Source: Bugula neritina (taxonomy: Eukaryota; Animalia; Bryozoa). Taken from it: a stretch of 64,000 bases of DNA. The notes beneath the pieces are model-generated. The model searched no databases. It had not been told where the DNA came from and was given only the letters and a program-made list of their open reading frames with translations. Both the position numbers and the translations under genes were made by a program. Each line of letters starts with the position of its first letter. Positions within the stretch are counted from its first letter, which is position 1. Where the stretch lies: NCBI GenBank assembly GCA_964035545.1, contig OZ037765.1, positions 26,411,504-26,475,503 on the forward strand. Reading direction: 5' to 3'. Positions 22,901 to 58,151 of this stretch are shown in pieces.

Positions 22901-25707
22901 TTCCTGCAAGTAGTAGTTTATTCACGGATTGTACTTGTAGGAATGTCTGAGAATGAGTAATGGTAAATGACTCAGATGTAAGTATAGTCCATAATAGCTT
23001 CACTTTTCACCAAAAGGTTGACGGTTTTTTAACTTATTGACAGCTGATTTAATTTATTGAATTTATTTTGAATATATGGGGGAATATTAAAATTAAATTG
23101 TTTATGCAGAACACACGACTTAATCATTCATTTAATTTGGTGGCAGTCATAAACGCAGAAATTCAGAAGTACCTTAAATTCTAGTAACAAAATGTTTTCG
23201 TCAATATATTTCAGAACAACATTGAAGGCTATATTATAGATATAACTATCTACTTACATCCAGTAGGTTAAAGATTATATACAACTTGATAAGAGCTTGT
23301 CCCCTGATTAAATGATATAGAACGGAAGCATCAACATATTGCATCATCAAACATCCAATAAACAGTATAACTCCTTTAGCCAGATCACACTTCTGAGACG
23401 CTGATAAGTACCACCTACAGTATTGTAAGACACTGCATTTTCTCATCAACAATTTACTAGTAGAAGTAAACAAGTATGATGGTTGCTAGGAACTATAGTC
23501 TGAATTTCTCCTACAACTTCAGCGCACACAAAAATCATCCCTAAATATTAAACTGCGTTTGATAGGGCTTATGATAAACACTAATGATTATTTCTGTTGT
23601 ATATGAAATATACTCATTGCAAATAGATACATCGTTGAGAGAAAATTTAGGTACCCAATTGCATAAAATGATGTATTCTCCTTGATTACATCCAATCTAG
23701 TAAATAGAAATAAATAAATATACTACTTACTGAGGTATAAACAGAGTCCATGGCCTGGCCAGTAATTTCAACATAATTATCAACAATCTTAGCGGGAGGA
23801 ATGTAAATATGAAAAGGAAAGAGTCGATGCACTGCAGGAATCCATAGAACAAAAACTACAACAGAAAAACATTTAATTGGTTATTAAAAAATGCACACAT
23901 CACAAATAGCCGCTTCCAATAAAGCAGCAATAGTAGTGTCACAGTGACTTCTTACACCAAATTAGTAATATTTAAGATGTTGATGGTCAACAGAATATGA
24001 ATAACAAAATCGCAACTGTGCTAACCATCAATGATTATCAGAACTCTATGAAAAAACCGCAGAGTTACAGTGGATTCAATTTGAATGATTCCGTATGAAG
24101 TGACTGATAATTTACCTTTTCACATTCCCAAGGAATTCGAAGAAACACATACACTCTCTGTCTCTTAATATTGAAGACAGCCTCATTCTCATCAGGTTCG
24201 TAACCTCTCGACAGCTCTGACCAAAAATAGCTGGCAAAACCCTCTGGTTTATCTAAATTATTAAAGCAGAAGCCATGCACATAAAATATGCATATAATAC
24301 AAATTAAAATATAAAAAGTATATCAAACGAATAAACATTTAAAGTAGTTCAGGCTGTTCATAATTAATTTCGGACTGAATAGGTCAAATTAATTGAACTA
24401 CGGTACTTAAAAACAGACTCAGAATGCTGATATAGTACTGGTAGTCTTTATAGTCTTCCTAAAAATCCCCTAAATAATTTACATGACTAGTCACAACTAA
24501 GTTAACTACACATAATCACTTAATGCATAATAAATTACAATTCATACTCACTCTCATCAGCCCGATCCCCATCATAATTTCTTTCAGAACTAGAATCGAA
24601 TTCTACTTCATTCCTGTGTTGAGCCGAGTTTATTTTCACAAGGGTATGCAGATCTTCCTCTTCTTTTGCATGCTCAGCAGATTCACTCCTGCAACTAGTA
24701 GATGATGAGTCACAGGTATTGACTGATCCAGTTATTAGTCGCTTGCTGTGATCTTCATTCAATCGCGCAGCACTGCAACTTTCTTTTTCAGAATTGATAT
24801 CACTTTCATTTGGAGATTCAAAGTCAAAAGGGTGCGCACCATCAAATGTGCCATCTCCATCAGGGGCATTCAAAATTTTTTGATGTTTATCGTAATTTTG
24901 ATTTCGTAATAACGGACTTGCATATCTACCTTCACTTTTACTATTTCGAATTTTGCTTTGATACTGATTTTCACCCTGGCCTTTAGATAGCAATTCTGTT
25001 TCTTGATATACTCTTTTATTTGTGCGATCAGTGTTTTCCCCATCAACTAAATTCATAGTCAACTTAAATGATGATGTACGCTCACTGATATTACTTGGAG
25101 TTGCTTGTAGTCTATTAGAAAAAGTAAGTTCGTTGCATTTTTTAGAACTATCGCGCTCGCTTTTAAATTGCGATGGAGTAAGAGAGTCACTAGTTTCAAA
25201 ATATGCTTCTGTGTTGAAAGCTGGGCCTAATTTCGTTTCAGTTTCTCCTTCACCTCGTCTAACGGACTGATCTGTAGAATCCTTTGATAGCTCAAATTGT
25301 GGTTGTCTTTGGAATTTGAGTGATGGGGATGTTTTTCTCAGTTTAGATCTAGGAACAGGAGAGTTTGAATTGGAAATCAAAGTATAACTACTACTAGAAG
25401 TAGATGAGTTTGTATTTGCTTTCCCGCCAATAGTACTAGTAGTAGTAGTAGTAGGAGACTGAACTTTTGAATCCTGAGCACTAGCATCGACAGCTGCTGT
25501 TCCATTACTACTTACACTATCTAAATCTTTCACAGTCATATTGCGATGCCGATTGTCATTAGTCTTAGACTTTGCCTCACAGTACGAATCACAGTCAGAG
25601 TCAGTTTCACGGTCAAGGTTGCTCCTAGGGCTAGTGTTAGACAATGACATATGGCTTACCTTACTGTCACCTTTAGGGTGTATGCTTTTAGTAAAAATTT
25701 GACTCAT
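19934..25707 (-). CDS. TAPT1: Transmembrane anterior-posterior transformation protein 1 homologue; multi-exon, with a long Ser-rich N-terminal extension
   Basis: Exons encode SELSRGY, YHLIRGQALIKLYIIFNLLD, LNVAFNSHN...SNN, VELKGGVFKKFEK, SEVIVDGVKHAFITKFNNI and SDQVARRLGLTPLP. The last exon (GIDEDLL...KKS*) is inferred, with stop at 19934-19936. Confidence 0.93.
22458..22681 (-). other. U12-type (minor spliceosome) GT-AG intron in TAPT1
   Basis: The 5' splice site is G|GTATCCTTT. A branch-like TTCCTTAGC (22468-22476) lies 10 nt upstream of the AG, with no polypyrimidine tract. The flanking exons join in frame (AVIYV|VLHSTLV). Confidence 0.85.
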
Positions 25708-26879: not shown

Positions 26880-29800
26880 ATGGCCAAAGTAAAGCCAAAT
26901 GACTTGCTAGCTTCAAAAGCTGGAAACTGGGTAATCATAAATTTATTATCTCTAAAACTAAACTGAATTTATATTGGGCATAACCTTTCTTCTTTCAGTG
27001 TTTATTGCATTAAACTGCACCAGATTTTTTTGCAATACTTTGAAGAGTTGATATTTTACATGTTATATTTATAGTTGTAATTTTGAACACTAAAGTTTGA
27101 CCATTTTCTTTAGCTATACTTTTATATCCACTGTTACAGTATAAGCACACCAATTGTACTGAGTACCTGAACATAGGAAACAGGAAAGATGTGACCAGCA
27201 CTGGTGCTATGTTAAATACAGTACAAGAGAGAAGGCAATCCTCACCCCCACAGCTCTTTCACCAAAAATCTTTATCTCTTTATCATCAACAAAATCCATT
27301 TTCATATCATGACAACAGAAATAACATTCAGCTGACAGGAGAATATTTGGGCAGCGTAAGTGGTTTACATGCATACATGTAGCATGATGAGTTCTTATAG
27401 TTTTTTTGTGCCTATTCAGTTCACGCAAACTTAAAATGCAACTATAGATATATATGTAGATGTCTATGTAAACTATAGCATAGACATCTGAGGTACAATA
27501 GGTACAATATTTATATATTGCTAGACAGTCTGCTGATATATGCTAATTTGGTAACCAACTTGTGTGATGACAACGTTATGTTCATTGTAAGCATTTGACT
27601 TGCATAAAAGTCAATGTTATTGTTATAGTTTTCAGATTTAGGGTTGATGTGTCACCAAGAGAGTCTATTTAACACTAGAGAAACTTCACCAGTTAAGTCG
27701 AGTAGATATCGTTATATTTAATACAAGAATACATAATAAAAATCCAATGTACAACTGTAATGATACGCACGTCTATTTAGTTTACAGCACTATCCTCAAC
27801 TGAGCTAGTAGCGCGAAGCGGCTACTATTACTTATCAAACAGCTTAGCTAATTGGCTAATACATTGTTCCGGGTCAATACGCAACCTTGCGTGTTGTGTT
27901 GCTGGTAGCTCCACGAGCCACCACACTGCCCCCTCCAGCAGAAAGCCCACTTTCTGATAAAATAAGATTCACATAAAAAAACGTATACTTCGTTGTGGGG
28001 GGTAAGAGAACAGTATAAAAGTATATACAAAAAAACAACAACTGGTAAAAAATATACAGGTATATATAACGTGCACTAAGTAATAAGCAAGAGAAGATCC
28101 TATCTACATGTAGAGTACGTGCCACCATTATGGTAGGGAATGCCACAGAGAGGTAGGGGAATGAGTAGTAGGGAGTTGTAGGTAGACTCGAGTTAACTGC
28201 GGGCCGCACGCTTCATGCGTTTAATAGACTCCTGTAAGTATTTGAGTTCACTGGATGCTGCCTGTACCCGTGGGGCCAGCCTGTACACTTCTTGCTCCAA
28301 GTCATGCGCCCTAGCTTCTACCTCACGTAGGTTACGGGCCCAGGGGGACGAGCGAGAGGAAGTTGGCTGCCTGTGTCTTTTCCGCTCTGAGGATGGAAGG
28401 GGAGGAGGGAGTGTATACGCATTGGTGTCTACTCTCTGTAGTACGACACGAGGAAAGGTATGCGGCATGCGTATAGGACTGTGAGGTGGAGAGTTAGTAG
28501 ACTGTGTAGGTTTATCTGCGGCTTTAGAGATGATGGGTCGCGGGGAAGGGAAGCCTTGCTCCAGGCGAGATAGCCGAGCTGAGTCAGTGATGAGTGGTTT
28601 GATGGCGTTGAGAAAGGCAGGATAGGATGATTCGTCTACTTCATAGACATGCCCTTGATAACACTGCATAGTACGTTGGTGCCGCAACAGGTAATCACGA
28701 TTGTAGCTATATTCTCCGCAAGGGCAGAAAGTGGTGATGTAGTGTTGCGGCAAGTGTACTTTTAGTCTGCGGTGGGTCGTGAATCGCTGCTGGCAGAGGT
28801 TGCATTCACGATTACCCTCACCTCCTTGATGGGTCCTGATCTCTCTCTCTGTGGCAGGGGTAATCCAGTTGGAGGTTGCTTCCAACTGGGGTGGCAGTTT
28901 CCTGGTGGTAGAAGTTGTTGGGGCCGGCTCTGAGTCCCACGCCATCTCTAGAGAAGGCATGCCCGGAGAGACGGGCGCGAGTGTGTCTACCAAAGTAGAA
29001 TTAGTGTTAGATCGCGGTGGATCTTTACAACCTAATTCTAGTGACTGTCGACCGTTGCTAGCCTGAGAGTCACTGCTTTTGGAATGCACTCGAGGAACTG
29101 ATGAATCATGTGTGGACTGACCAAGAACAGTGTCTAGCTCCAGGTCTAACAGACCATCGGCCATTACAGTGTCTTCATCGTCATTCACATGAAACGTGGT
29201 TCCCAGTAATTCTGATTCAATCTGCTGAATTAGTTCAGAATCTACTGGCATCGAGCCCGTTTCCATGAATAGGAATACAAGACTTATACTGGCTTACCTG
29301 GGAACTCGGTATTAATGTCCATACTCAACGTTCTTGGTAAGGTTGGAGCTGGTTGTGAGATACGTCTGCCTTTGGCGATGTCAGCATAAGAAAAGGCTGA
29401 GCATCGTTTCTGAGGCACGAGGTCGGAACTATTTGCTTTACGCGCATTAATTCCTCCCACTATTCCGCCCTCGCAAAAGTTGATATTTGCGTGGGGTTCA
29501 CAACTCCAACATTTTATCGTACGGTTTTCCCCTAGACTTTCATGTGCGCCGCTTCTAATGCAGTCACATATGAAGTCTTTCAAATACGGTGGGGGCTTCC
29601 TCGTACGCTGTCCCCTCTCTAGGGGGGGTGACACACTTGTCGGTTCGTTAGTAGGGGCCTCTAATGGCGTCTCTACTTCACCGTTAGTGGTCACCTCTTC
29701 TTGTTCTCCGGATGGAGCCCCTCCCTCCGTGGGGGTTTGCACTTCCGGAACCGGCTCGGTTTCTGGAAGTGATGGAATTAGACTTGGCGGTGGCGGACAC

Positions 29801-32800
29801 GCTTCTGTTGACAAAAGCTGCCGCTCCTCTCTCACCAAGTTTTCCTCCCGCGGTATGACCACTTCGTATTCAGGTCCATGCCGCCGTCGCCCGCGCGTCG
29901 TTGTCTGCCTCCTGGGCTCTAACAACGGGGGGCTTCTCCCACTCCGTCAGGGCTAGCCCAATACGGTTTCAAGCGAGACTCATTCTGGATAGACACCTGT
30001 CCTGAGCGCTCAATCTTGTACGTATGATTGGGCATAGCCTCGACGACCACGTAGGGGCCTACGAACTTAGGCTTCAGCTTATCAGCCTGTCCGCGGCGCC
30101 TACGGTAATTGACCATCCACACCTTATCTCCTCTTTGATAGAGGGGTGGTTCATCGGAATCTTCGTGCCGCACCTTCCACTGCTGTTGACGCAGTATCTC
30201 GTGTGCGGCCTTCATCCGTTCCACTAGTTCACTGGCATACTCATGGACTGAGTTATCCTGCTCTGGAACGTGATAGGTGAGATGGTCAGGGACACGAGTC
30301 TCTCTCCCGAGCATCAAGAGGTTTGGGGTCTCACCAGTACTGGTGTGTGGGGTGCTACGGTATGCACGCATGACTTGCGGCAACACCGTATCCCATTCCT
30401 CTTGACCTCGTCCAAGGAGGAGACTCCGGAGCGCATCACCTAGCATCCGGTTGTTGCGCTCCACCACCCCGTTACCTTGAGGGTGGTAGGGGGTGGTCCT
30501 GCTCTGATTTACTCCCCAGAGGTGGCAAAGGTCGCTCATCAGTTGAGACTGGAATTGAGCGCCTTGATCAGAGTGTATCTGTTCGGGAAGCCCAAAATAA
30601 CAGAATACATGTTGGTCTAGTGCCCTGGCCACTGTTGGGGCTGATGCATCTGGGATAGCCAGAGCATCCGCCCACCTAGTAAAGTGGTCGGTTAGTACTA
30701 GGATCCAATTATTGCCTCTGGGGGTCAGGGGCATGGGTCCGACCAGGTCTACAGCGACCACTTGCCAGGGCCTACCAGCATATAGCCTCCGCCGTCCTGC
30801 TTCACCAGGGGGGCGGCTATGCTTACTGGCCTGGCAGATCTCACACTGTTTGACTCTGAGCCGGACGTCACGCTCCATCTGCGGCCAATACCACCGGAGT
30901 CGTAATTTGGATATCACTCGCTTGACCCCTGCGTGAGCCTGCTTGTGAGTATCCCAAATCAACTCACGGCGGATGGCTGTGGGGCAGACTACCCTCTTCC
31001 TTTCCGGGTGTCTGCCGCTGGCAGCTAGAGAGATGGTTAGCAACCCATCCTGCCCGATCCGCAGCGAGTCCCAACGCTGACAGTATAGCCGGAACTCGGC
31101 GCATCCCTGTCGTATGCGTTCCTCGCTGGGTCGTCGCCCTTCCCTTTTGGCCCGGTAGATGTCTGCCACGACTCCCGGCAGCTCTTCTTGGAGCTTCTTC
31201 AGCTCTCGAACATTACCGGCCAGTACAGGGTTGGCGCGGAAGTTTTGTACATCCTCCGGGGACTCATCAACTCTTTGCCTGAGTTGACCTTGATCCCAGT
31301 CAAACGGTGCTCCGTGATGAGCCAGCGTCTCCAACTCGCATCGTGGGGGACCTCCATCCCTCCTCTCGATGTTGAGACACTGTTTACAACCTCCGTCAGG
31401 TCGGCGACTCAACCCATCTGCATTGCTGTGTCTCTTGCCCGGTCGGTGTTCGATCCGGTACGAGAATTCAGCTAGGATTTCGAGCCACCGGGCGACCTGA
31501 CTGGAGGGCTCTGCTCTCCTGCACAACCAGATCAGCGAGGCATGATCCGTACGCAGCCGGAACTTCCTGCCATATAGGTATGGTCTGAAGTGCTTCACTG
31601 ACTTGATTACTGCCAGCAGCTTCTTGCGGGTAGTGCAGTAATTTCGTTCAGCGGGAGAGAGAGACTTGCTGTAGTAGGCTACTACTACTTCTCGGCCGTC
31701 CTGCACTTGCGACAGCACAGCGCCAACATTCTGGTCACTGGCGTCTGTGTCTAGGATGTACTCCAGAGTGGGGTCTGGGTAGGCCAAGATGGGCGCCGCT
31801 AGGAGGCAGCCCTTGAGGCGGTCGAACGCTTCTTGTTCGACTGGAGTCCACTGCCACGTCACTCCCTTTGCGGTAAGCCGGTTTAGCGGCTGGGCTATGC
31901 CCGCAAAGTCTGGTATGTATTGCCTATAATACCCTACCAGCCCCAAGAAAGCCCGGAGTCCGGTCAAGTCTTGGGGGGTGACCCAGTCTTCTACTGCCCG
32001 TACCTTTTCGGGATCCGTTGCCACGCCGTTTCGACCGACAACGTGCCCCAGGTACTTGACCTCCGGCTGCAATAGAGCGCACTTGGAAGGTTTGAGCTTA
32101 AGACCGGCACCTCGGAGTCTCTCGAAAACCTCCTGCAGACGACTGACATGTGTCTCGAAGTCTGGAGAGATTACGATGACATCATCGAGGTAGACCAGCA
32201 GTGTCTTCCAATGGAGTCCGCTAAGGACTTGTTCCATCAGCCTCTGGAAGGTGGCCGGGGCGGAGGTTAACCCGAAGGGCAGCACCTTCCGCTTCCACAA
32301 ACCGTCCCGTGTGATAAACGCCGCTTTCTCCTGGGCGTCGGGACTCAGAGGAACCTGCCAATAGCCGCTTAGCAAGTCTAACGTACTGAAGTACTTGCTG
32401 CCGGCTAGGGCGTCCAATGACTCGTCAATGCGAGGTAGAGGGTAGGCGTCCTGTATGGTTACGCTATTGAGTTTGCGGTAGTCCACACAGAACCGCCAAC
32501 TGCCGTCTTTCTTCCGGACCAGTACGACTGGCGAGCTCCACGCACTATGGGCGGGCTCTATCAGTCCCCGGTCCAGAAGATCCCGTACTTGTCGGCTAAC
32601 CTCCTTCTCTTTCTCCGGCCCCAGCCTGCGCGTGGGCTGCCGGACAGGGACTGTCCCTGCAGTCAGCGGTATTTCGTGTCTGACAATTCCAGTCAGTCCC
32701 ACGTCATTCTCCCCGCTGCTGAACACATCACCGTAGTCGCGTAGTAACTTGGCCATAGCTTGGCGTTCTCTGTTACTCGCGCAGCCGCCACTGGCTGTTT

Positions 32801-35800
32801 CGTATAACTCCCGGAGATGTGTCGGGACTGCCCCTCGTCCCTGAATAGGGTGTCGAGGGGATGCCTCCGTCGCGTCACCCAGCGACGGGCCCACGTCCTC
32901 TTCCTGGACGGAATGGAACCGGCCCAGCATTGACCCAGCTGGGAGCTCAATGGGCTCGGTAAAGGGGTTGACGCACTGCACTAAGACCTCCCCTCGCTCA
33001 GTTAGTCGGTTTAGACTACTGGCGAGTTGGATCTTTTCGTGCGCGCTTTCAACGACCCCGAGCCTGGCTATCCGGTTGCTGTTCACTCGGCAGTGGATAG
33101 TAGCTCTGGAGCGTCCGGGTACGGTGCAGTTCCGAACTACCTGAACACCGCCCACCAGAGGACGCCCAAACTTATTCACACAGGCGAGTTCTCGCCCGCC
33201 CATCAGCACCACCGACTTACTAAAATCTATTCGGCACTGGTGTTGCTTCAAGAAGGGCATGCCGAGGATAGCATCTTCCTCCAGTTGACCTATGATAAAG
33301 GTCTCCTGTACAGCCTGATCTCGGACACGCCCAGGGAGCTCGATAATACCATAAAAGGGGATACATGACCCGTCTGCCAGGGTGCCATGTTCTCCAGTAT
33401 ACGGTCGTACTCTATCCCTGTCCCGGCGGGGCAGTGCCTCAAAGACTCTACGGCTGAGAAGGTTGGTAGTACAACCGGAGTCGAGCAGGAAAGTGACGGC
33501 GTTGCCGGCCACCTTTCCGGGTAGGAAATAGCTCTCTCCATGTGGTTGTACTTTCACCCCCCCGCATGTGCTGTCCTGGTTTGACAGGACGGCGGGGGTT
33601 CCACCCGTGGTTTACGGGGCTTCCGGCGGCGAGGTTGGTGTCGGCGGGGTTTGGGCCTCTCCACTGGGCCTTCTGGCTCCATTTCAGTGGCGGGCTCCTC
33701 CTCCCGAGGTAACCGGTGAAACCGGTTAGCGAGTGGCAGGGAAAAGGTACTAGGCCGTTGTGCGGGCCTACTAGTCCTGCGTGGTACCTGCCACTCGGGT
33801 AGAATGTTCCGCCGGGTCCGTACGGACAGACGACGGCGTGTTCCACCATACTCCTTTAGTTGCGGCCCGCGGGGAGGGAGAGTGTCCGCGGGCCGTGACA
33901 GTTTAACGCCCCCTGGTATTGGGGTCGTCCTTTCTGTCCCTGGTCCTGATCAGCGCTACTCCAGCCTTGCCCCACAGGTGTTGGGGGCATCCGCAAGGCC
34001 TGACCGGGGCCAGCACCGGCCAGAATGGTCACCAATTGTCCTAGCATCTCTACCATACGGTCCACTTCGGCTTCCAGCGGGAGGGCTTCGGAGCCTGTCG
34101 TAGCCCGAGCAGCGCTGACTCCAACTACTGGTGGGTTCCGTTGTGCTCGATGCATTTGGGTAGCCAACAGGTAAGCTTCTCCAGCCTTCAGGGCATCCTC
34201 TATTCTGGTTATCCCTTTAGCTCGTAGGTGATGGTCTAGGCCCAGGTCGTTTAGGGACTGGACAAAGGCGTCATAGGTGTAACGCTCTTGGTGTTGTGCT
34301 GGCAGATCGCTATATGCAATCTGCGCCAGCTTCTTCACCGTCGCGGCATGTTCTTGTAGCGAGGTCCGCGGGGTGCGGCACAATCTCTCCAGCTTGGTCC
34401 TGGCGTCTATGACGGAGGTGCCAAAACGGGCCCGCAGCGCAGCCAGTATGCCGTCTACGTCCGTTCCCACTCCGTACGGCTTGGCTTGCTCCGTCACCGC
34501 CCTCCGCAATTTGATAAGGGCCACTCTATGCGGCCATTGAGCAACTTCCATTACCTCCCTAAATTCTTGTATAAATTGTTCGACATCTTCCGACCCAGTA
34601 AAGGTGGGAGCTTTCAAGCAATGTCTATAAGCTTCTTCTCCTTCACGATTCACAGGATTAACAGCATTTCTACGCTCACCTTCTACTGGGGGTGGTTGCA
34701 TTCTAGCATTTTCAGTCTCCATCTTTGATATACACTATCCCACCGCTGCCACCACTGTTATAGTTTTCAGATTTAGGGTTGATGTGTCACCAAGAGAGTC
34801 TATTTAACACTAGAGAAACTTCACCAGTTAAGTCGAGTAGATATCGTTATATTTAATACAAGAATACATAATAAAAATCCAATGTACAACAGTAATGATA
34901 CGCACGTCTATTTAGTTTACAGCACTATCCTCAACTGAGCTAGTAGCGCGAAGCGGCTACTATTACTTATCAAACAGCTTAGCTAATTGGCTAATACATT
35001 GTTCCGGGTCAATACGCAACCTTGCGTGTTGTGTTGCTGGTAGCTCCACGAGCCACCACATTATTGTACTAGTTCCTGTAGCAAATCATGTTGCATGAGG
35101 GTTTAAACTGCAGAGAGTTGATGATAAATACAATCAACAGTTCAGCGGTAACAGCTCAGAGAAACAATACTGCTGGACAGTAATCTGCTTAATTACTTAA
35201 TCTCACAAGCTTTCAATTTCCGTGAGAAAGTGAGCTACACGCTCTTCATGGAAGTTTTGGCTGCTTCGTTTAATACATTATTGCCTATACCTATACTTAA
35301 ATTATTTCCTGCATTATTGAGCTTAGCTTATAGACAACAGTGATATTCATGTGATGTAAAATAAAATTTATAGCAATTGCTTTAATAATTAGAAGCCCTT
35401 TTCATAATTTCATTTTTATAAAATTTTTTTTTAGATCAATAGAATATTTTTACCAAAACTAAATTGTAATCCATATTCCTCTGGTGTAGGGTGGCAACAC
35501 TAGAATGCTGGGAAGGAGGTTAACAACTGATGACAGTCAGCATAAAAGTGACATCAGTGGCTTTCTGAAGCACCATGGTAATGAGGTTACAGACTCTTTC
35601 TTCCAAACAAGCTACATGCTCTCTCATACTGCAAAAACACCCCAGCCTACACAGCACAGGTTGGTGTTATGTATACAGCATCTCTATGTGCCTGGCTTAC
35701 TCATAGATACAACTTGTAAGCGAAACACATTGTATATATTTGATTTAAAATTTGATTTATTTAAACGGCTACTCGACTGCTACTGATTGGCCGTAAAAAT

Positions 35801-36320
35801 ATAAAAAAATTTGGGATAGCTGGAAGCTATAAATCGTAATCTGAAATAAAAGAGTGAAAAATATGAACAAACTTTTTAGATTTTGTATGAAAAATCCTTA
35901 CAAACTTGACAGTTTGTAAAGATCATGTTCTTATGGCAAAGAAGATTGCAGCATATCTAAATAATTTTTCACATCAACTGCCTGTTTGTTTGTCTATTAT
36001 CATTGACTTTGTACAGGAGGTATACTAAAGAATATAGAGAGTCTAACCGAGGACTGATTGAGCCTCAGACTTCTACCACTAAGCAGTTTGCTGAGCTACC
36101 AAAAGCTCACAAAACCTCGAGTCAAACCCTCGTCTCCTCTCTTGAACCTTACCAGAAGCACAATGCATGGAAGTACGCTTATCATAGACATAATACCCAT
36201 GAGATTTATCCTAAAGTATGGGGGGATAGAAGTTATATTCATCTTCCTACATCTAAGCCTAGAAGACGTGCTATGGTTGTTGATAAAGTAGTAAGAGGCT
36301 ATGCTGCTAATTGTGCATAA
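26880..36320 (+). CDS. TEX36: TEX36-like HDNR-domain protein, ~246 aa; coding exons 26880-26930, 27140-27355, 35490-35659, 36017-36320
   Basis: All junctions are GT-AG and phase-compatible. The protein contains GNWY, NPFSYHDNRN...GEYLGS, LGRR, HRRYTK and HNAWKYAY, resembling the TEX36 signature PFSVHDNR...GLGRKK...RRFP. Confidence 0.8.
27621..27925 (-). repeat. 3' LTR of Gypsy element 1
   Basis: Identical to 34756-35060 except T27756 vs A34891. Confidence 0.97.
27926..27936 (-). other. Polypurine tract (GGAGGGGGCAG)
   Basis: Purine-rich run immediately 5' of the 3' LTR on the element strand. Confidence 0.9.
28193..29266 (-). CDS. Retrotransposon ORF3, 357 aa: acidic N-terminus, C2H2 finger, CxC-x12-H-x5-C finger, basic patch, C-terminal coiled coil; not Env
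   Basis: Intact ATG-to-TAA ORF between pol and the PPT. Motifs: CNLCQQRFTTHRRLKVHLPQH (28742-28804), CPCGEYSYNRDYLLRHQRTMQC (28661-28726), ERKRHR, and heptads LREVEAR-AHDLEQE-VYRLAPR-VQAASSE-LKYLQES-IKRMK. No signal peptide or TM segment is visible. Confidence 0.85.
   Translation of the reverse strand: METGSMPVDSELIQQIESELLGTTFHVNDDEDTVMADGLLDLELDTVLGQSTHDSSVPRVHSKSSDSQASNGRQSLELGCKDPPRSNTNSTLVDTLAPVSPGMPSLEMAWDSEPAPTTSTTRKLPPQLEATSNWITPATEREIRTHQGGEGNRECNLCQQRFTTHRRLKVHLPQHYITTFCPCGEYSYNRDYLLRHQRTMQCYQGHVYEVDESSYPAFLNAIKPLITDSARLSRLEQGFPSPRPIISKAADKPTQSTNSPPHSPIRMPHTFPRVVLQRVDTNAYTLPPPLPSSERKRHRQPTSSRSSPWARNLREVEARAHDLEQEVYRLAPRVQAASSELKYLQESIKRMKRAARS
29284..29925 (-). CDS. C-terminal tail of Pol/integrase, displaced into another frame at a C6 homopolymer (29927-29932)
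   Basis: Contains the typical Gypsy integrase-tail motif RTRKPPPYLKDF. One extra C would read APPLLEPRR... continuously from pol. Confidence 0.75.
   Translation of the reverse strand: MLEPRRQTTTRGRRRHGPEYEVVIPREENLVREERQLLSTEACPPPPSLIPSLPETEPVPEVQTPTEGGAPSGEQEEVTTNGEVETPLEAPTNEPTSVSPPLERGQRTRKPPPYLKDFICDCIRSGAHESLGENRTIKCWSCEPHANINFCEGGIVGGINARKANSSDLVPQKRCSAFSYADIAKGRRISQPAPTLPRTLSMDINTEFPGKPV
29919..33557 (-). CDS. pol: Pol polyprotein: aspartic protease, reverse transcriptase, RNase H, integrase with GPY/F module
   Basis: FLLDSG; FCVDYRKLN, LPFGL, YLDD; DTDAS...TDH; H..H..CEIC; VAVDLVGP, IHSDQG, GVVERNN; KFVGPY. Confidence 0.97.
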   Translation of the reverse strand: MKVQPHGESYFLPGKVAGNAVTFLLDSGCTTNLLSRRVFEALPRRDRDRVRPYTGEHGTLADGSCIPFYGIIELPGRVRDQAVQETFIIGQLEEDAILGMPFLKQHQCRIDFSKSVVLMGGRELACVNKFGRPLVGGVQVVRNCTVPGRSRATIHCRVNSNRIARLGVVESAHEKIQLASSLNRLTERGEVLVQCVNPFTEPIELPAGSMLGRFHSVQEEDVGPSLGDATEASPRHPIQGRGAVPTHLRELYETASGGCASNRERQAMAKLLRDYGDVFSSGENDVGLTGIVRHEIPLTAGTVPVRQPTRRLGPEKEKEVSRQVRDLLDRGLIEPAHSAWSSPVVLVRKKDGSWRFCVDYRKLNSVTIQDAYPLPRIDESLDALAGSKYFSTLDLLSGYWQVPLSPDAQEKAAFITRDGLWKRKVLPFGLTSAPATFQRLMEQVLSGLHWKTLLVYLDDVIVISPDFETHVSRLQEVFERLRGAGLKLKPSKCALLQPEVKYLGHVVGRNGVATDPEKVRAVEDWVTPQDLTGLRAFLGLVGYYRQYIPDFAGIAQPLNRLTAKGVTWQWTPVEQEAFDRLKGCLLAAPILAYPDPTLEYILDTDASDQNVGAVLSQVQDGREVVVAYYSKSLSPAERNYCTTRKKLLAVIKSVKHFRPYLYGRKFRLRTDHASLIWLCRRAEPSSQVARWLEILAEFSYRIEHRPGKRHSNADGLSRRPDGGCKQCLNIERRDGGPPRCELETLAHHGAPFDWDQGQLRQRVDESPEDVQNFRANPVLAGNVRELKKLQEELPGVVADIYRAKREGRRPSEERIRQGCAEFRLYCQRWDSLRIGQDGLLTISLAASGRHPERKRVVCPTAIRRELIWDTHKQAHAGVKRVISKLRLRWYWPQMERDVRLRVKQCEICQASKHSRPPGEAGRRRLYAGRPWQVVAVDLVGPMPLTPRGNNWILVLTDHFTRWADALAIPDASAPTVARALDQHVFCYFGLPEQIHSDQGAQFQSQLMSDLCHLWGVNQSRTTPYHPQGNGVVERNNRMLGDALRSLLLGRGQEEWDTVLPQVMRAYRSTPHTSTGETPNLLMLGRETRVPDHLTYHVPEQDNSVHEYASELVERMKAAHEILRQQQWKVRHEDSDEPPLYQRGDKVWMVNYRRRRGQADKLKPKFVGPYVVVEAMPNHTYKIERSGQVSIQNESRLKPYWASPDGVGEAPRC
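33554..33901 (-). CDS. 115-codon open -1 frame linking gag to protease (not in the ORF track)
   Basis: It reads LSRPADTLPPRGPQLKEYGGTRRRLSVRTRR...FSLPLANRF...RRRKPRKPR...AHAGG*. Its start aligns with the end of the element-2 gag ORF (RGP..KE..GG...VRT.R). Confidence 0.75.
   Translation of the reverse strand: MSRPADTLPPRGPQLKEYGGTRRRLSVRTRRNILPEWQVPRRTSRPAQRPSTFSLPLANRFHRLPREEEPATEMEPEGPVERPKPRRHQPRRRKPRKPRVEPPPSCQTRTAHAGG
33856..34722 (-). CDS. gag: Gag (288 aa) with an eroded zinc knuckle
   Basis: First ORF after the PBS. It has capsid-like KAPTFTGSEDVEQFI...W...ALRARF and is clearly homologous to element-2 Gag. Confidence 0.9.
   Translation of the reverse strand: METENARMQPPPVEGERRNAVNPVNREGEEAYRHCLKAPTFTGSEDVEQFIQEFREVMEVAQWPHRVALIKLRRAVTEQAKPYGVGTDVDGILAALRARFGTSVIDARTKLERLCRTPRTSLQEHAATVKKLAQIAYSDLPAQHQERYTYDAFVQSLNDLGLDHHLRAKGITRIEDALKAGEAYLLATQMHRAQRNPPVVGVSAARATTGSEALPLEAEVDRMVEMLGQLVTILAGAGPGQALRMPPTPVGQGWSSADQDQGQKGRPQYQGALNCHGPRTLSLPAGRN
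33863..33907 (-). other. Candidate programmed -1 ribosomal frameshift signal
   Basis: In-phase G_TTA_AAC (33907-33901), a 5-nt spacer, then a perfect 10-bp stem CGGCCCGCGG/CCGCGGGCCG (33895-33886 with 33872-33863) closing a 13-nt loop. Confidence 0.8.
34737..34754 (-). other. Primer-binding site complementary to the tRNA-Leu 3' end
   Basis: TGGTGGCAGCGGTGGGAT lies 1 nt from the 5' LTR. Its complement ATCCCACCGCTGCCACCA matches the animal tRNA-Leu(AAG/TAG-type) 3' end. Confidence 0.9.
34756..35060 (-). repeat. 5' LTR of Gypsy element 1
   Basis: TG...CA termini. On the element strand it has AGCCAAT, an AT-rich box, an Inr-like TCAGTT and ATTAAA in the expected U3-R order. Confidence 0.97.
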
Positions 36321-37712
36321 GCAATTCTCAACCTGTCCTAAAGTTATTAACTGGTACAACCTTGAATTTTATTTTATTTTTCTAACTGATCAAAGCATAA
36401 TTTTGTTTATCATGTTTAAAATGTTGACTTTTTTATTTTTGTTCCATCATGTTTGTGTTTTGTAAAATTACTTTTGACAACTTTGTCAATATCCATGTAG
36501 CATTATTTTTTGAATTTGTTATGAAAATATTAGAAATTCAAATTAATTATGTTATATTTCAGCTACTTACTTATAGCATAATTTTAACCCATAACTCTTA
36601 TATATTCAAGTTTGTTCATCTTAATCATTGAGTTTGTCCAGGAATAACACTGACAACAAGCTTGAAAAGATTTTTAAACATAAAGTTTTATCTTTACAAG
36701 GAAAAATATTAAAATTCAATCCTGTTGCTTAGCTTTAATCTTTATAATTAGGGAATTTACTGTCTTAAAAGAGTTGGAATTGTTTTAGCAGTTACCAAAT
36801 ATATATTCTCAAAAGACAAAAAGACACTAATGTTAAAGAAAAATATTACCATATAAACAACAGGTATATAAATATTTTGATGAAGTCCATTAAACACTCT
36901 CAAAATTGTTTAAATCAACATGTATATTTAATGAGCTGTCAAAGCTAGATTTAACAAAACAATTCTACCAATTACTAATTTTAGCATTACCCATAGTTTG
37001 TTTTCAAAATGAATAAAACATTAGAAAAAATAATGACCCTACAACTAATGAGATAATAAATGTGCATTCTGTGAGATTTATGTTGGACAAACCATATATA
37101 GCTTCTCCATCATTTGTCTTAAAAATGCAGCACACATTTTTTGCAAACAGAAACATGTGTGTGATATTGATTTGGTGAATCAGTAATTCAGTTTAGAATG
37201 AGTTATCAAATGAGAACTATGGCATATAACAAGACCTTTACAGCACCACGAATTGCCTATAAATTTTAAATAAGTTTATAAAACCATTATATCTGCCTTT
37301 AAAGAATCACATACCTAATTTTACTTAGATCTTCATTACCATTACTTCAAAATTTAAAATGCTGTTTAATTTGATATTCTAATTAGATTCAATCCTGAAC
37401 AGCAATAAAGGGCATTAGGAATTACACATTCTGTATATTCAGAGCTTTATCACTAAGTAAACAAAGCTGGCTTGCTAGCACACTCTTAGCTCAAGACTTC
37501 ATTAAGATGTAAACAGAGGATGTAAGAGTTAAGCAGAATTTATCTGTGAATTATGACATAATATACAAAAGTCAACAGTATATTTAAGATAAAATATTGG
37601 TGACAGAATTAATCAGCATAACCTGTTATGGGTAAAATATTCCCATCAATGTGTTACATAAACACAGCTGGCTGGGGTGAGTAGTGTCGAGTGTTATTCG
37701 TAATACCACAAC

Positions 37713-40700
37713 ATGGGGAGACCACTAACAGCCAAAATAGCTTTCTTTCTTTCTTTTGTTGTTTATCTGATAGATGTTTATCGCTTCAAGGTAAGAAATA
37801 ATAAAAATATGTATAAAATTGTCATAGTATGTGCTCCTTAACATCAGTACATTCAGAAGAATGTAGGCTAATTTCTGTTTGGTTACTTGGCATTACAATT
37901 TGTGAAACTAACCAAATAATTTTGTAATTTTTTACAGTCTAAAAATAAATATAACTCATGTCATAATAGCATTGTTTCGCCAATGTCATATATAAATTAT
38001 TTGCTTTATATAACTTGATTTTAATATCCCTTATTGGATATTTCCGTACACTTTGACCATTTATTAAAGAAACCAGCTGCAGTAAAATCCTTAATTTTAA
38101 TGCAAATTTTACCGCCATTTATTTTATCATTTAGGTTTTGGCGTCTGTTTCTCTCTCTAAAGACATGGAACAATGTAACATTATAGACAATTATAACTCT
38201 CGTCAAACTTTTTCAACTGTAAATACATGTCCAGAAAGTATGTCATATGAGGATCTTTCAAGGAATTGCTCAAAAGTTACCGAGACAGATTTGGCCAGTA
38301 GAATACCAGTAACAGATGTCTACACTGGCCAAACCTTTCAGAACATTTACTGCTTCCTTTGCTATCACAACCATTCTAATGTGGCAAGATGGCACTTGAG
38401 CATATCTTGTGGGCCAACTGAAAAAGCTGTAAACTATACTGAAGATATTGATGAGGACAAAGTACGACTTTGCAAACCCCAAATTATAAAACCAAAATCT
38501 GTTCAACTTGAACAATGTAGCAAAATAGTAAGGGAAAAAAGAGAACCGAAAAAATCCAAGAACAACTATATGCCGGAACCGAGAGCAGATAACCCTCCGT
38601 GGACTTATGGATTTACCACTTTGTTCAACTTTGGTGCAAACGGAGATACCCATTGGCTGCTCACATCAGACATGGAGGAGTTTCTATCGAAATCGTCATG
38701 CACAGAGGAAACACAAATATTTAATCCATTCACTCTTGAGTGTCTCGAACTAAATTGCCCTCGCAGTGAGATATCACTTAACGGAAAATGTAAAAAAGCA
38801 AATTCGGTGACAAAATCAGTGCCAATGGTTTGCGTGACCTTTGAAATCTACTATGAATTTTATGAGCCAACTAATGCATCTGATTATGAATGGAAACTGG
38901 TGAATTTATTTCTAAATAAATACGAAATAGATCCATTAGATATAACCATTCCGTTGACACAAAACTCAGGAGATAGTCTATGTCCTGGAATTGATTTGTT
39001 ACAATTCAATAATTCATGGCAGAATAAAGATGAAACATCAGTAAACTTTTATTTAAATCAACCACATTTTGCAATTGACAACGGCACTGACATACTTCCT
39101 TTAATGAATGAAACAGCAACATGTTTGAATCTTAAAAACAAGACTTCACACAAAATAACACTATCAGTTAAATTTGCTGAAACCCACCCTCAACTTGAAA
39201 AATTGCGTAATACGTTTAAATCAAATAAAGTTGGGTTAAAAAACAATGAGTTAGGGTTCCTTTGGAAAAAGAAAAATGGACAAACTTTGGGTTTTAGCTG
39301 CCTATCAACATTTGAAAAACAATTTCTCTATCATGATTGGTGTCAAGGCATTCGAAAAGAGTACTTTAATGATGAGTTTGAGCTTCTTTCATTGACGAAA
39401 TTGAGAATTAAAAGCACCAATCAGACTTACTCTGCTTCTCAGTTTCAATACACTCTCGTCACCAATAACGGGACAATTCAAGGCAATATCTCTAAAATGG
39501 CATCTACATGTGACACGTTGCCTTACATTAAAAATCAAAGTTCTTGTATAAAATTAGCAATTAACGACACACATTATGATCAACAGCAAGATGGCAGTAT
39601 TAAAGTCAATTCATTCGCCGAACTCTCTAAACTTCAGCTGCCATACGAAAGTGAACCAAGAAAACCCATCAAGAGTGTTTTTACACCAGAAGAATATGAA
39701 TACATACAAAATGACACCGACATTTTTGGTGAGCAAATGTTGGAAAATGATTCGACAGTAGCCATATGCATTCCTGAAGAACTCATAATGCTGTTTATCG
39801 AGTTGGAGCTTTGGAATAAAGTAAACATAAAACCCAGCTGTTCATATCTGCAAAAGTTTGCCTGGGGTTCCTCAGTCACAGGATTTGTGTTCTCTTCAAT
39901 TTCAATGCTCGCTATGATTGCTGTGCTGATTACATATATCATGTTCAGAACCCTGCGTACATTACCAGGAATTAGTTTAATGAATTTGACTTGCGCAATC
40001 ATGCTCTCTCAAATAACATTTCTAGCAGCAATGCTTGCTCCGACTGACTTAGATGACAGCAACCATGTATGTTTTACCATGGCAGTTTTGACGCATTACT
40101 GCACACTATCCAGTTTTATGTGGATGAATGTTATGGCTTACAGCAGCTACAGGTCATTCGGTGCTGATTTGAAGACAAGATTAACAAAATTGAATAAACG
40201 GCACCTCATTGCCAACAGCCTTTATGGCTGGGGAATTCCTGCTTTAATAGTAGCCATTTGCGTTGCTGTCGACATTATCAAAAAGGAAGAGCAACTAATT
40301 GCATATGGTGTAGTTTCAGGAATTAAAGTGTTTGATGACTTGGGTGCAGATGGAGATGGTGTAGATAAAATTCAGATACGTTACAGGAAAATGTCAACCT
40401 GTTGGATAGGAAATAGCAAAGCAGCACTGGTGATATTTGGAGCACCGATGGTCTACAGCATGATTGTGAATTTAACACTCTTTATTAAAACATGCTACGG
40501 TAATTATAAAATACTATTTATTTAGTTTTTTAAATCATATATATAGTTTTTATTTATTACGGTCTATCAGCACTGGTCTGTTCTCTATAGCCATAAATGT
40601 CTTGCTTATAATATTACCAGGTATGAGGGAACAATGTAACAAAAGTAAACCTCGCCCGGTTTTGAGACGAGACTCTGGATCTGGTAAACTGAAACAGCGA

Positions 40701-41135
40701 AGTGAAATGGCCATCCACTGCAGGCTGTCAGCACAGTATGGCTTTTCTTGGATTGTAGGAGTCATCATAATAATCTTAGGGGTATCACACACAGAAGACA
40801 AGGCTGTCTGCTACACATTACACATACTCAACCTAATATTCAATGTCCTCTATGGATGCACTGGCCTATTTCTTTTCTTTGCTTTCCTCGTCAACAAAAG
40901 AATTCTACATTTATACAAAGCCCGATTTTCATCCAAAAGATTTCCACACTATAAATCGTCTAAGTCTAACTCTGCATTCAGTAAGTCATGGCAAGTGTCT
41001 ACAATATCCAGCAAGGTGAGCAGTCCCACGACACCAATTGAGGAAGAGCCAGATGTTTCAGCAAATAATAATAACGTAGATAATACTAAAGTCAGCCATG
41101 GAAGTATTAATGTGGCATTTGTTGATCACTTATAA
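37713..41135 (+). CDS. Class-B (Methuselah-like/adhesion-related) GPCR, ~985 aa; exons 37713-37790, 38135-40499, 40621-41135
   Basis: Signal-peptide exon and a Cys-rich ectodomain (PVTDVYTGQTFQNIYCFLC). The 7tm_2-type core has LRTLPGISLMNL, HYCTLSSFMWMNVMA, YGWGIP, CWIGN, GFSWI and GLFLFFAF. No obvious GPS motif. Confidence 0.88.
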
Positions 41136-44700: not shown

Positions 44701-47700
44701 AATAAATGATGTAAAGTAATACAAAAACAAGAACCTTAAGACTGTTCCATTTGCAGACGAAATCTTTAGCAAGTTTGTGATTGGCTGGATGAAGTAAGAT
44801 GTCGGGTAAAAGGTCCGGATTATCCAAGTCGACTGTGTGAAAACTAGACTGCAGGTAGTTTTTGTCCTGTGAGAATGAAACAGCATGATAACCTCAAAGA
44901 CATGGTTTGTGAGTCTAGAAAATTTTCAATTGAAGCAAAAACTAATGAATATCTCAAATGTTTATAATAAAATAAGGGAGTATTGAAGAGTGGTTAGCTT
45001 GCTGTGCTCACCTGGTCGTGAATAAATATCCGAGTAGTATGATGGCTGACCAGGAAGTAGAATTTAGGATATACAGGTATGGCGGAGATGTCCACCACCC
45101 TCTCTCCTTCTCCGGGATCGTCTGCTCCTGCATCTCTCTCTGCTAGACACTCATCACAGTGAGTATCTGCCAGTCTGTTGAGGGTCAGACAACTCCTACA
45201 CGTCCATGTAGTAGGCATCTGAAACACAGACACCTTAAGACACAGACGACCTTTTCAGACCGAGGGCCACTGAAAGGGAATATTCCGAGGCGAGGGCCAC
45301 TATGTAAACTTTAGGTTGTGCTGAGGGTCATGGCATTAGTATTTTTCAAATTACTTTATTCCAAATTTTTATGAATCATTACACAATAAAGTCACAATAG
45401 TTACTGAAGGCTGCGTGTTTTGTAGCATGTGTATAAATAAGACATTTAAAAGGTGGTTTTTCATTCCAATTTATGTAAACCGTGAAAAATAATTTTATTT
45501 GTTATGCCTTTGAGGGCCACATAAATGTATGCTGGGGGCCACATCCAGTCCTGGGGCTGCCTGTTGGACAGCCCTGCTAAATCAGTGTGACGATCTAATC
45601 CTTTAAAGACTATTTTTTTCTAACAAACTTGACAGTGTAATATTTAGAGATTGCGTTATAACTAAAAAGGTTGACATGAAATATTTGCGACTAAATTTTA
45701 AGTCAGTACTAAAGGTAGCTATTAACTAACTAATGTATGTACATATGAAATAATAGATTTGCATATAAATATGAAGCCCTAATGAATATTTCATATATGC
45801 TATGCACTGCATATAGTTTAAGGTATGTCAAGCACTTAGTCCCACATTAATGCATTATGTTGAGAACAAATATCGTGGGTTGTAAGGCCAAGTTATAGAA
45901 AACCAACCAATATCAGATGCCTAAAACTTATTCACTAAAGAACTATTATTCTATAGCAAGTGCAAACGTGAGCTATAATATCGAATCAGATTTTCAACTG
46001 CAACCCATAATATAGAACGATAACCTTTAACCTGCAATAGCTTATATATGAACACAATCAGAATGGCTTGAAGGCAACTTAAATGATTTATTACTGAAAA
46101 GAAAAGCAAGTAAAACTCCTTACCCTTGGGAGCTTGCATTTCAAGCAACAATCTAGCTCTCGGTCATTAACAGCCCGACATATGCAAGTCCAGTACTCTC
46201 CATTCTCCTCATCTTCAACTTCATCATCACAAAGTAATTCTGCAGCTAATTTGGCTTCTTCTGCTTTATCAACCGCAGATAACCCCTATTATATACAATT
46301 GCAACATGATTTCCTGTACGATGAAATGCTCATCTAATAAACCCATAAAATCGTCATCTGACAAAAGGAGACAACTAAAGCAAGACATTTAAAAAGACAG
46401 CTTGGTAGAGTTCATAGTATTCTTTGCCTTATTAAATCAACTCGAAAATATAAACATAAAATATAGAATAATAATGGCTAACCAGGAAAAAGAAATTATT
46501 TAATCTTTTATTAATATATACAGTATATTATAATTAGTCACCAGATACGATATATTGATATATAATAAATATATTTTGGATTAATTACTTGAGTTTGGTG
46601 CTGTGTAGAATCACCAAACATCTCGTCTTCAAATGATGCATCTGAGAATAAATCTCCGGAAAGATCTGAACCTAATGAAAGAGTTCAACAGAATTGTGAA
46701 TCTATTACTACCCAAAGTTCTACAGTTGGAAATTTAGAAAGAAAAGCTATCGTATAAACACTGCCTGGTAAATTTTATCAATTTTATCATGTTTAGATAT
46801 TTCAAACCTAGAGCAATTATATTCCAGGTACATTCAAACAACAATGTGTTTGTAAAAGATAAAAGCAGCAGACCTACCGGAGCAACATCCTGCTTTTCCA
46901 GGTAAAATATTGAAACTTGCTTCAGTTATATCCCCTTTTGAAAATGCTGGCAAGTTGACAGGAGAATAAGCATCATTATCCTGTATTTTAGTGAAAGAAG
47001 TACTATTATTAGAACCACTTTCAAGCGGTGCCAGTTTCTGCTGGCAATGTTGAGTAGGTGCAGAGTTGGGGTTACATGAGTTGGAACCCTGGGCTACTGA
47101 TTCTGTAGGATTGTCACTGCATTCTGCTGTGTGGTTTCTATTCTCAATGTCTCTACACAGCAGGCTGCGATCTACTGTATCTTCCTCTGTATCCTTCAAG
47201 TCTACAGCTTCTTTGTCAGTTTCAATGACCTCTATAGGGTCTTTGTCAGCATCAATGACATGTCCAGCATTTTCAACATTATCCTTCATGCTTTTGTCTG
47301 AATTGTCAATGTCTGCACAATCATTGTCAGAATTCTGTGCAGGAGATGAATTGAGAGAAGGTAAAGAAGAAGGCGACAGGGGTTTAGCGCCCTCATTATC
47401 ACCTAACGCCTACAACACACAGTCTAGATACTAACATGAATTCACATATTCATATATAATGATTCTACTGGGTAAAAGTAGTGCAGGTTTGTGAGCTTAT
47501 CAGCAACCTGTGATATGCCAAGGGAGAAATCAACTTTATAGCCAGTAATTACAGTTACACAAGAACTTATTTTTAAACTCACAGTAAGCTTATGTAATAC
47601 AATATTACACTGCATACTGCTACAATAAATTATTAAACAGATATGAGAAGTTTTCTGATATTTCAAAAGAAAAGATAAAAAGCAACAATTCTTTGACTTC

Positions 47701-54000: not shown

Positions 54001-54589
54001 TGGGTTTGATAAGAGTAACTACGTTTGAAACGCAACTTTTTAAACTGCAGGAGCATTAGCGCCAAAAGTTCTACTATACATGCTTATTATAAAACGGATA
54101 GCAAGAAGATAATTTTACCTACGTCTATATGCATGTATAACTTCGAATAACAATAAGGAGAACTATGACGGGACAACTCGTAACGTAACAGTAGGTGTAC
54201 TATTATTATGTGGCTAACATAATGGTACAGACGCTCAAATTAATCAGCATGTCACAAAAATTGCGCCTATAATCTCTATAATATTATGTATAACTTATAA
54301 GCTACAAAAAGCCTGCAATGCATTGCTAAATGTGAACTGAAATATTCAATATATGTATTAATATGGAATTAAAATGTTGAGATTAATTAGATTTTACACT
54401 GTTCAGCAATGCATTACAAGTTTTTTTATAGCTTATAACTTATACATAATATACAGTAGAAATCTAGTGACAGCAATTTGACTTAAATACAATCATATTT
54501 TGTCACCATCGAATTTTATCACAAATAATCAACTAGTTTAAGTTTGTCAATACATAATTTGAAAAACATCGAGCTATATATTTTAAAAG

Positions 54590-57194: not shown

Positions 57195-57255
57195 GATGTC
57201 CTAACGTTCTTCCATCGTTTCCAAACAGTAGCTAGGATCCCACCGCTGCCACCAC

Positions 57256-57994: not shown

Positions 57995-58151
57995 ACATGT
58001 GTATAAATAAGACATTTAAAAGGTGGTTTTTTCACTCTACATAATTCACACATGTGTAAATTAAATAATTTTATTTGTTGTGCCTTTGTGGGCCACATAA
58101 ATGTCGGCTGAGGGCCGCATCCGGCCCTGGGGCCTTCTATGGGCAGCCCTG
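57995..58151. mobile_element. hAT/Charlie-like fragment (copy 2)
   Basis: Shares atgtgtataaataagacatttaaaaggtggttttt...gggccacataaatgt...cagccctg with 45427-45576. Confidence 0.65.

Follow-up and report, generated by a model that had tools for sequence, protein, structure and literature searches.

Animal retrotransposons with long terminal repeats (LTRs) are believed to depend on transcription factors of the host and to be poorly equipped against silencing by Piwi-interacting RNAs (piRNAs) and heterochromatin protein 1 (HP1). Complex retroviruses carry accessory genes near their 3' end, among them Tas/Bel1 and Tax, and Tas has an acidic activation region and a nuclear signal. Here we describe ORF3, the third open reading frame (ORF) of a Ty3/Gypsy element in the bryozoan Bugula neritina. 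The element lies in a stretch of 64,000 nucleotides of contig OZ037765.1 (NCBI GenBank assembly GCA_964035545.1, positions 26,411,504 to 26,475,503 of the forward strand), henceforth the window, whose own numbering is used throughout. ORF3 is a conserved accessory gene, and we consider with a probability of roughly 0.45 that its product works in the nucleus and regulates transcription of the element that encodes it, possibly via HP1 docking. Tas/Bel1 and Tax differ in belonging to the Retroviridae and in lying behind env rather than in its place, and we saw no homology between them and ORF3.

The original prediction took a membrane Env to be the usual third ORF of Gypsy elements. This holds for errantiviruses, in which Env is the third ORF and is made from a spliced subgenomic RNA (PMC4276936). 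The premise was too narrow, because the literature describes third ORFs other than env in elements of rotifers, nematodes and plants (PMC5408684, PMC10309623, PMC7264820). The closest functional precedent is CERV of Cer1, a Ty3/Gypsy element of the nematode C. elegans; this protein serves in RNA export rather than in activating transcription. The original prediction had missed both CERV and the PxVxL word of ORF3. In the literature found, CERV is the only Gypsy-encoded regulator with a shown function. It is a protein of 517 amino acids, spliced from gag exons and 3' exons, with H, M and G domains and a C4-type loop; it exports genomic RNA and is reported to be confined to nematodes (PMC10309623). 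By description, CERV and ORF3 share the traits of a Gypsy-encoded, putatively nuclear accessory regulator that is not an Env, with a Cys-rich metal site, a leucine zipper, a nuclear localization signal (NLS) and a predicted multimeric state, encoded at the 3' end. They differ, again by description only, in that ORF3 is free-standing with its own conserved ATG and combines two C2H2-like sites with a PxVxL word and an N-terminus that is acidic.

The ORF3s of bdelloid rotifer elements are likewise family-specific sense ORFs between pol and the 3' LTR that were first taken for env, and they are said to come from subgenomic RNA. They encode GDSL esterases, DEDDy exonucleases and transmembrane or coiled-coil proteins, and the main text of their description lacks the words zinc, C2H2 and finger (PMC5408684). 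Additional ORFs of plant elements (Grande gene23) also form a conserved extra gene between pol and the 3' LTR, some with nuclear products and a proposed regulatory role, but they are mostly antisense with their own promoter, have no zinc-finger domain named in the source, and belong to plants (PMC7264820). CopiaMBD and the chromovirus chromodomains are comparable as retrotransposon-borne readers of chromatin or DNA of probable host origin (PMC6673714); these are parts of the Pol polyprotein linked to target choice, whereas in this element ORF3 is a separate ORF. Extra non-env genes behind pol are a known kind, and what is new here is the PxVxL word of ORF3, a splice-donor word shared between two elements and, probably, the ORF3 domain family. 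We found no account of the ORF3 family in the literature searched, which did not include supplements, subscription journals or Repbase Reports. The word zinc is absent from the main text of PMC13524379, PMC8220671, PMC8556966, PMC6338049 and PMC13326412, and the available parts of PMC11952523, PMC2774666 and PMC3383448 contain nothing on the family. Repbase, GyDB or Dfam may hold an entry for ORF3.

ORF3 and its protein family

ORF3 encodes 357 amino acids from ATG to TAA with no intron, inside the LTRs (28193..29266). Like all parts of the element it lies on the minus strand, and it reads 29266..28193 between the integrase tail and the polypurine tract, intact as originally described. It starts 17 nt after the stop of the pol-tail frame, in a different frame, and its end lies 256 nt short of the polypurine tract. 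When the stretch from the pol stop to that tract was shuffled 2000 times, the longest ORF averaged 70 codons and never exceeded 233, so ORF3 is not a chance frame.

The protein begins with an acidic, Leu-rich segment (residues 1-60, 29087..29266) with 14 Asp or Glu, 1 Lys or Arg and 8 Leu. This segment is predicted to be disordered with one helix (10-21), and its composition is activation-domain-like; a word resembling a nuclear export signal (NES) occupies residues 35-44. The conserved two-finger domain follows (residues 121-245, 28532..28906), and its landmarks are W134, finger 1 (C155-x2-C158-x12-H171-x3-H175), finger 2 (C181-x-C183-x12-H196-x5-C202) and V210-D211. Behind it come an NLS-like basic patch, ERKRHR (residues 294-299, 28370..28387), and six heptads (residues 313-354, 28205..28330) in a predicted single long helix, with all a and d positions from 313 to 351 hydrophobic or Ala. 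The composition of the N-terminus, the two fingers, the basic patch and the heptads were all found as first reported. The highest 19-residue hydropathy is 0.63 and the structure model has no membrane helix either, which agrees with the earlier statement that ORF3 has no transmembrane segment and is the reason why we do not regard it as an Env. An errantivirus-type Env was ruled out, as hydropathy gives no transmembrane anchor or hydrophobic leader, there is no viral-fusion Pfam match and the core is a Cys/His finger domain.

A word-indexed search retrieved 46 relatives at 34-72% identity. Eight are full length (355-383 amino acids, 49-72% identity) and keep the start, the stop and all parts. 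When searched exhaustively, the database gave 214 proteins at E ≤ 0.001; at least three of the 150 listed (P0128, P0132, P0177) are ordinary multi-finger proteins. Of the 272 proteins scanned with a core profile, 240 matched, and 207 of these did so along three quarters or more of the profile. The 207 supplied 211 domains that form 182, 89, 54 and 35 clusters at 90, 70, 50 and 40% identity, respectively. The zinc ligands C155, C158, H171, H175, C181, C183 and H196 are each kept in 201-208 of 207-211 aligned domains. Seven ligands of the two predicted fingers are near-invariant, and the eighth varies across the family (Cys in 164 of 207). Other columns are similarly constant (W134 in 183 of 192 domains, V210 in 195 of 205, D211 in 193 of 206), and the linker between the fingers is exactly five residues long in 168 of 169. 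Helix positions +2, +3 and +5 of finger 1 are mostly Arg or Lys.

Conservation extends beyond the core. The segment before it is net acidic in 61 of 69 proteins and the segment after it net basic in 136 of 145. Of 34 distant homologs, 21 have acidic-hydrophobic 30-mers, where chance would give 11. The C-terminal heptad score, a crude one of our own, beats all 20 shuffles in 79 of 116 C-termini. Among close kin the N-terminus is conserved like the core (62% versus 61%), and peaks of conservation fall on the domain, the motif and the helix.

When 38 members were compared with Pfam, the sole matches were weak C2H2 rows, seen in 5 of them. Finger 1 scored 15.6-19 bits against zf-C2H2 (E 0.002-0.02), under the Pfam cut-off of 25.2, and a sequence search of the Protein Data Bank (PDB) matched this finger alone. 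Unnamed ESM Atlas clusters at 0.91-0.95 serve as leads only, and a tree of 65 cores (100 columns) was largely without resolution. The lack of a dedicated Pfam family bears out the earlier remark that ORF3 fits no recognized one. We conclude that ORF3 is a real, conserved accessory gene of a large family without a Pfam model of its own, and that this family is probably undescribed.

Modeled as a monomer with AlphaFold2, residues 120-250 form a confident, compact unit with a predicted local distance difference test (pLDDT) score of 93.9 and a predicted template modeling (pTM) score of 0.85. The whole-protein model comprises a disordered N-terminus, a domain of about 125 residues, a disordered linker and one helix (308-356), with no third globular domain. 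Classical Krueppel-type C2H2 arrays have a seven-residue TGEKP-type linker between canonical fingers; in ORF3 the two fingers are predicted to pack into one compact domain rather than a TGEKP-linked array. The C-x2-C-x12-H-x3-H pattern of finger 1 and its weak zf-C2H2 score are what ORF3 has in common with classical C2H2 pairs (Kaiso, SALL4, ZBTB), from which it differs by the CxC second finger, the fixed five-residue linker, the conserved Trp, helices on either side and the predicted single globular unit. With the core model, Foldseek gave no rows at E ≤ 0.001 against the PDB (best 0.22) and none against BFVD (best 0.34), and a wide structural comparison with 48,161 chains gave none at Z ≥ 5. 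The best structural row was a partial match to the C2H2 pair of Kaiso (5vmu; Z 3.5, root-mean-square deviation 2.6, 57 aligned residues). The lack of a fold match does not prove a new fold.

Copies, linkage to pol and host-like homologs

In run X1, whose source may be that of the window itself, the summed contig depth was 27,000-37,000 for ORF3, 34,000-41,000 for gag and about 130 for the flanks; contig depth is not copy number, and we read it as indicating several copies and nothing finer. ORF3 is multi-copy, with a depth like that of gag and some 200 times that of the flanks. Of the 12 indels listed (out of 14), none falls inside ORF3. Many database homologs are truncated.

ORF3 is not in frame with the integrase, from which a stop and a frame change separate it in the window element. 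A contig from X6, another sample of the same study as X1, shows the same spacing (record 17, 85% identical); it runs ungapped across the stop of the pol tail and the start of ORF3 (29127-29333), differing at 32 positions. A distant homolog (P0080, 40% core identity) opens with an integrase-tail match (52%, E 3e-7). Linkage to pol is partly shown, having been seen in the window copy, in one 85%-identical relative and in one distant homolog. Scans of metagenome contigs (protein; alignment A2) and genome contigs (A2) retrieved no ORF3-bearing loci, and a scan of viral contigs with the integrase part found nothing. A search of proteins of 451-2000 amino acids found one (P0070) and no Pol fusion, which is weak evidence.

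Named homologs occur in Watersipora subatra (XP_067940964.1, with two domains and isoforms, and XP_067944745.1) and in Bugula neritina (KAF6040922.1 and KAF6040923.1), and they may be host genes. The original prediction had considered recent capture of a host gene; the nearest named protein has a core identity of just 46%, which excludes recent capture from any of these proteins. A single clade of the named host-like proteins was not rejected in the approximately unbiased test (p-AU 0.28), and it was not shown either. Several homologs (P0048/P0267, P0271, P0078) contain two tandem copies each of the ORF3 domain. The tandem-domain protein of Watersipora has RefSeq isoforms and a C-terminal heptad helix, and two tandem-domain genes of Bugula carry adjacent locus tags. 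These tandem-domain proteins are candidates for domesticated or donor genes.

The element and its surroundings

The G+C content of the window is 28-40%, that of animal-like DNA, with two G+C-rich islands. The first island is the ORF3-bearing element (35060 to 27621). Its LTRs (5' LTR, 34756..35060; 3' LTR, 27621..27925) are 305 bp long, begin with TG and end with CA, and differ at one base; the element is young and its insertion recent. On the outer sides of the 5' and 3' LTR lie the two copies of a 4-bp target-site duplication, TTAT (35061..35064 and 27617..27620), and this copy sits among host genes. The 18-nt primer-binding site (34737..34754), 1 nt behind the LTR, is presumably of the tRNA-Leu type, and the same 18-mer is found in a second Gypsy element of the window. 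The polypurine tract is at 27926..27936. Hairpins or inverted repeats in the LTR, considered as protein-binding or TAR-like sites, were ruled out (z 0.39).

The gag ORF (33856..34722) encodes 288 amino acids, of which 195 align with the gag of the second element (112 identical). The pro-pol frame (29919..33611) encodes aspartyl protease, reverse transcriptase, RNase H, integrase and an SH3 domain and ends at a frame break near 29,930; the integrase C-terminal tail continues in another frame for 220 codons (29284..29946, stop at 29286-29284). The order protease-reverse transcriptase-RNase H-integrase is that of Ty3/Gypsy, and the best solved match is Ty3 Gag-Pol (E 1.5e-126). Pol of the window copy is broken: the frame is lost once near 29,930 and once at the gag-pro junction. 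At 33856-33990, gag of this element has no CCHC knuckle in Pfam, and about 250 nt without assigned content separate the gag stop from the protease frame. At 29480-29580 a Cys cluster (C-x-C, then a further C) stands behind the integrase-tail motif R-x-R-x-P-P-x-Y-L; P0080 and P0153 have Cys at similar places, and the cluster is possibly a small metal site.

The second Gypsy element (54529-57545, minus strand) is decayed and belongs to a sister family whose pol protein is 81-87% identical. It has the same primer site, a different LTR with the same CCAAT word and a gag with a CCHC knuckle. Its missing ORF3 is uninformative because the copy breaks off inside RNase H. A short dispersed repeat resembling a miniature inverted-repeat transposable element occurs at 45412-45557 and 57982-58133 (89-96% identical pieces), one copy lying just outside the second element. 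Among the neighboring genes, 44994-50642 (minus strand) holds SNF2-type helicase exons and a RanBP2-type zinc finger (Pfam Helicase_C and Zn_ribbon_RanBP), which we take to be a ZRANB3-like gene. Opposite these helicase exons is a nearly intronless gene for a secretin-family seven-transmembrane receptor (38135-41135, plus strand; 7tm_2, E 9e-22). A Ser/Thr-rich ORF of 390 codons and no known family (24535-25707, minus strand) is probably a large host exon.

Possible roles of the ORF3 product

The proposed regulator would be translated from its own ATG on a subgenomic RNA whose splice donor lies shortly after the gag start, and the basic patch would take it to the nucleus, where it would bind DNA of the element itself through the predicted two-zinc domain. 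The C-terminal heptads would form a dimer presenting two finger domains, with the basic first recognition helix contacting nucleic acid. The acidic N-terminus would recruit the transcription machinery and the PxVxL word would engage the HP1 chromoshadow dimer, so that the LTR is kept transcribed and the element remains active within chromatin which its host attempts to silence. ORF3 would then be a Gypsy counterpart of the complex-retrovirus transactivators, by function and not by descent. The roles given to the finger, the heptads, the N-terminus and the PxVxL word are inferred from anatomy. What stands of the originally predicted accessory nuclear regulator is a conserved, multi-copy, non-Env element gene with the anatomy of a nuclear nucleic-acid-binding protein; the interpretation itself is supported in part.

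The candidate donor for a subgenomic RNA is a splice-donor-like word 43 nt after the gag ATG (34674..34683). Its 12 bases recur at the same place in the second element, within an otherwise unalignable stretch, and form the only donor-like word in 3 kb of that element. Another donor-like word lies just ahead of the pol-tail stop (29292..29301). The element has three such words in 7.4 kb against 0.99 expected (P 0.09), a number not beyond chance. RNA run X2 gave one 276-nt contig over 28266-28541 at a depth of 2.6, plus contigs over gag and pol; from contigs neither the strand nor the start nor a subgenomic RNA can be read, and the library may contain DNA.

The HP1-docking-like PxVxL-x-R word (residues 272-278, 28433..28453) lies in the disordered linker. 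In close homologs P272 is kept in 38 of 40, V274 in 33, L276 in 39 and R278 in 33, in a linker that is otherwise just 36% identical and has pLDDT <50 for residues 262-285. PxVxL occurs in 35 of 44 close homologs versus 2.7 expected, although these 44 are kin and not independent. The next branch out has LxVxL/V/I at this place. Words of this type dock on the HP1 chromoshadow dimer, and the HP1a Access Codes, for example in the zinc-finger protein Odj, have the same hydrophobic-x-Val-x-Leu core, basic +4, hydrophobic +5 and conserved, disordered setting (PMC12526061). ORF3 shows the Access Code features hydrophobic -2, Val/Ile 0, aliphatic +2 and basic +4; it differs in having two basic residues in -4..+4, in being element-encoded and in that binding is putative. 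An extended signature with at least two basic residues was found in 7 of 35 non-redundant homologs (1.2 expected) and reached in none of 200 shuffles; with three basic residues it was found in 2 of 35 and reached in 10 of 200 shuffles. We set aside an excess of [PL]xVx[LMIV]x[RK] in whole distant proteins (44 versus 5.9), which most likely comes from the helix at the core start. The test was set after the word had been seen, and as an HP1-docking word PxVxL is a good lead rather than a result.

A number of observations weigh against a transcriptional regulator. No clear splice acceptor was found for ORF3. Finger-1 position +6 is hydrophobic (Val or Leu in 172 of 211 domains), and a classical major-groove reading is doubtful because of this residue and because the linker is not of the TGEKP type. 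The LTR holds host-type promoter words, of which CCAAT is common to both elements, and no significant repeat or structure (hairpin/inverted-repeat test, z 0.39). The two basic residues of the window word fall under the three to six of the Drosophila HP1a signature, three of the seven extended-signature hits come from the window's own branch, and among distant homologs the strict form of PxVxL shows no enrichment (2 of 101 versus 5.6 expected). The bare motif matches over half a proteome (PMC12526061), and HP1 docking fits repression or targeting equally well as activation. Genomic context is known for few homologs only, and X1 includes individual contigs from which ORF3 is missing wholly or in part (joints 27962-29951 and 28294-28529, at a depth of about 100). 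The 20 single-letter differences listed for ORF3 comprise 7 synonymous and 13 non-synonymous changes and no stops, where 24% of all changes would be synonymous. Of the 29 clusters looked up, four have named members, all uncharacterized bryozoan proteins and two of them with doubled domains.

The best placed of the alternatives, which we nonetheless hold to be unlikely, is a Rev- or CERV-like factor that binds unspliced genomic RNA, oligomerizes and licenses its nuclear export, itself being made from spliced RNA. CERV, the one characterized Gypsy accessory regulator, is spliced, nuclear, Cys-rich and multimeric, with a leucine zipper, an NLS and a candidate NES (PMC10309623). A donor word conserved near the gag start in two families would create just such an export problem, and ORF3 has its NES-like word at 35-44 and its Arg/Lys patch. 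NES-like words occur in 22 of 35 close kin (14.9 expected), but distant homologs show no enrichment for them (9 of 34 versus 10.3 expected). Nor does the domain content resemble CERV: ORF3 lacks the H, M and G domains, has C2H2-type sites and not a C4 loop, and is modeled as one 125-residue finger domain plus one long helix. PxVxL has no role in an export model, and no structured RNA element appeared in the LTR (z 0.39) or in an Rfam search (0 elements).

We find it improbable that ORF3 is an integration-targeting tether, whose domain would read DNA or HP1-marked chromatin and steer the integrase while fused or bound to Pol. Chromodomains and CopiaMBD are precedents for such a tether (PMC6673714), ORF3 adjoins the integrase tail, a donor-like word stands just ahead of the pol-tail stop, and PxVxL would point to heterochromatin. 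In P0153 (710 amino acids, 34% core identity) a motif resembling the integrase tail shares the reading frame of the domain, and by eye P0112, P0104 and P0051 each continue without a frame change from a tail-like stretch to where ORF3 begins. The P0153 link, however, is at the level of a motif (BLASTP E 0.42), P0112 and P0179 scored at chance level and later dropped out, and no homolog with an integrase domain was present among the 30 and 12 scanned. In the element, moreover, a stop and a frame change part Pol from ORF3, with record 17 of X6 spaced alike; the window copy lies among host genes, and a tether has no need of an acidic activation-like segment.

More improbable still is a self-limiting repressor that binds the element, recruits HP1 and damps its own family, in the manner of a one-piece KRAB-ZFP/KAP1. 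Host heterochromatin factors, Odj among them, combine zinc fingers with a PxVxL word (PMC12526061), and the word is conserved in close homologs, but the acidic hydrophobic N-terminus is kept as well as the core and resembles an activator, and the family is abundant and recently active. Least likely of all is a passenger, meaning a zinc-finger gene that the element took from its host and would carry to no advantage: host-like homologs in Watersipora subatra and Bugula neritina (single clade not rejected, p-AU 0.28) and the many truncated database homologs would suit it, whereas the core of the nearest named protein shows 46% identity, families that are 50% apart still have open frames and the zinc ligands, conservation peaks on the domain, motif and helix, and none of the 12 indels listed (out of 14) falls inside ORF3.

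A broader form of the transcriptional-regulator reading is doubtful as a whole. It holds that an old and diverse invertebrate Gypsy lineage encodes its own sequence-specific chromatin regulator, with a compact double-zinc domain, an activation region, an HP1 motif and a dimer helix, directed against HP1 silencing, and that bryozoan hosts may have tamed the domain into genes of their own. The ORF3 domain is a new, confidently modeled zinc module, and its host-like bryozoan copies offer a case for studying capture versus domestication. An element-encoded finger protein with an HP1-docking word would make the question of whether animal retrotransposons fight silencing themselves a testable one, with a small protein, a 305-bp promoter and a control that changes one residue. 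If the proposed role is true, 'simple' LTR retrotransposons would have independently evolved a counter-silencing switch like that of complex retroviruses.

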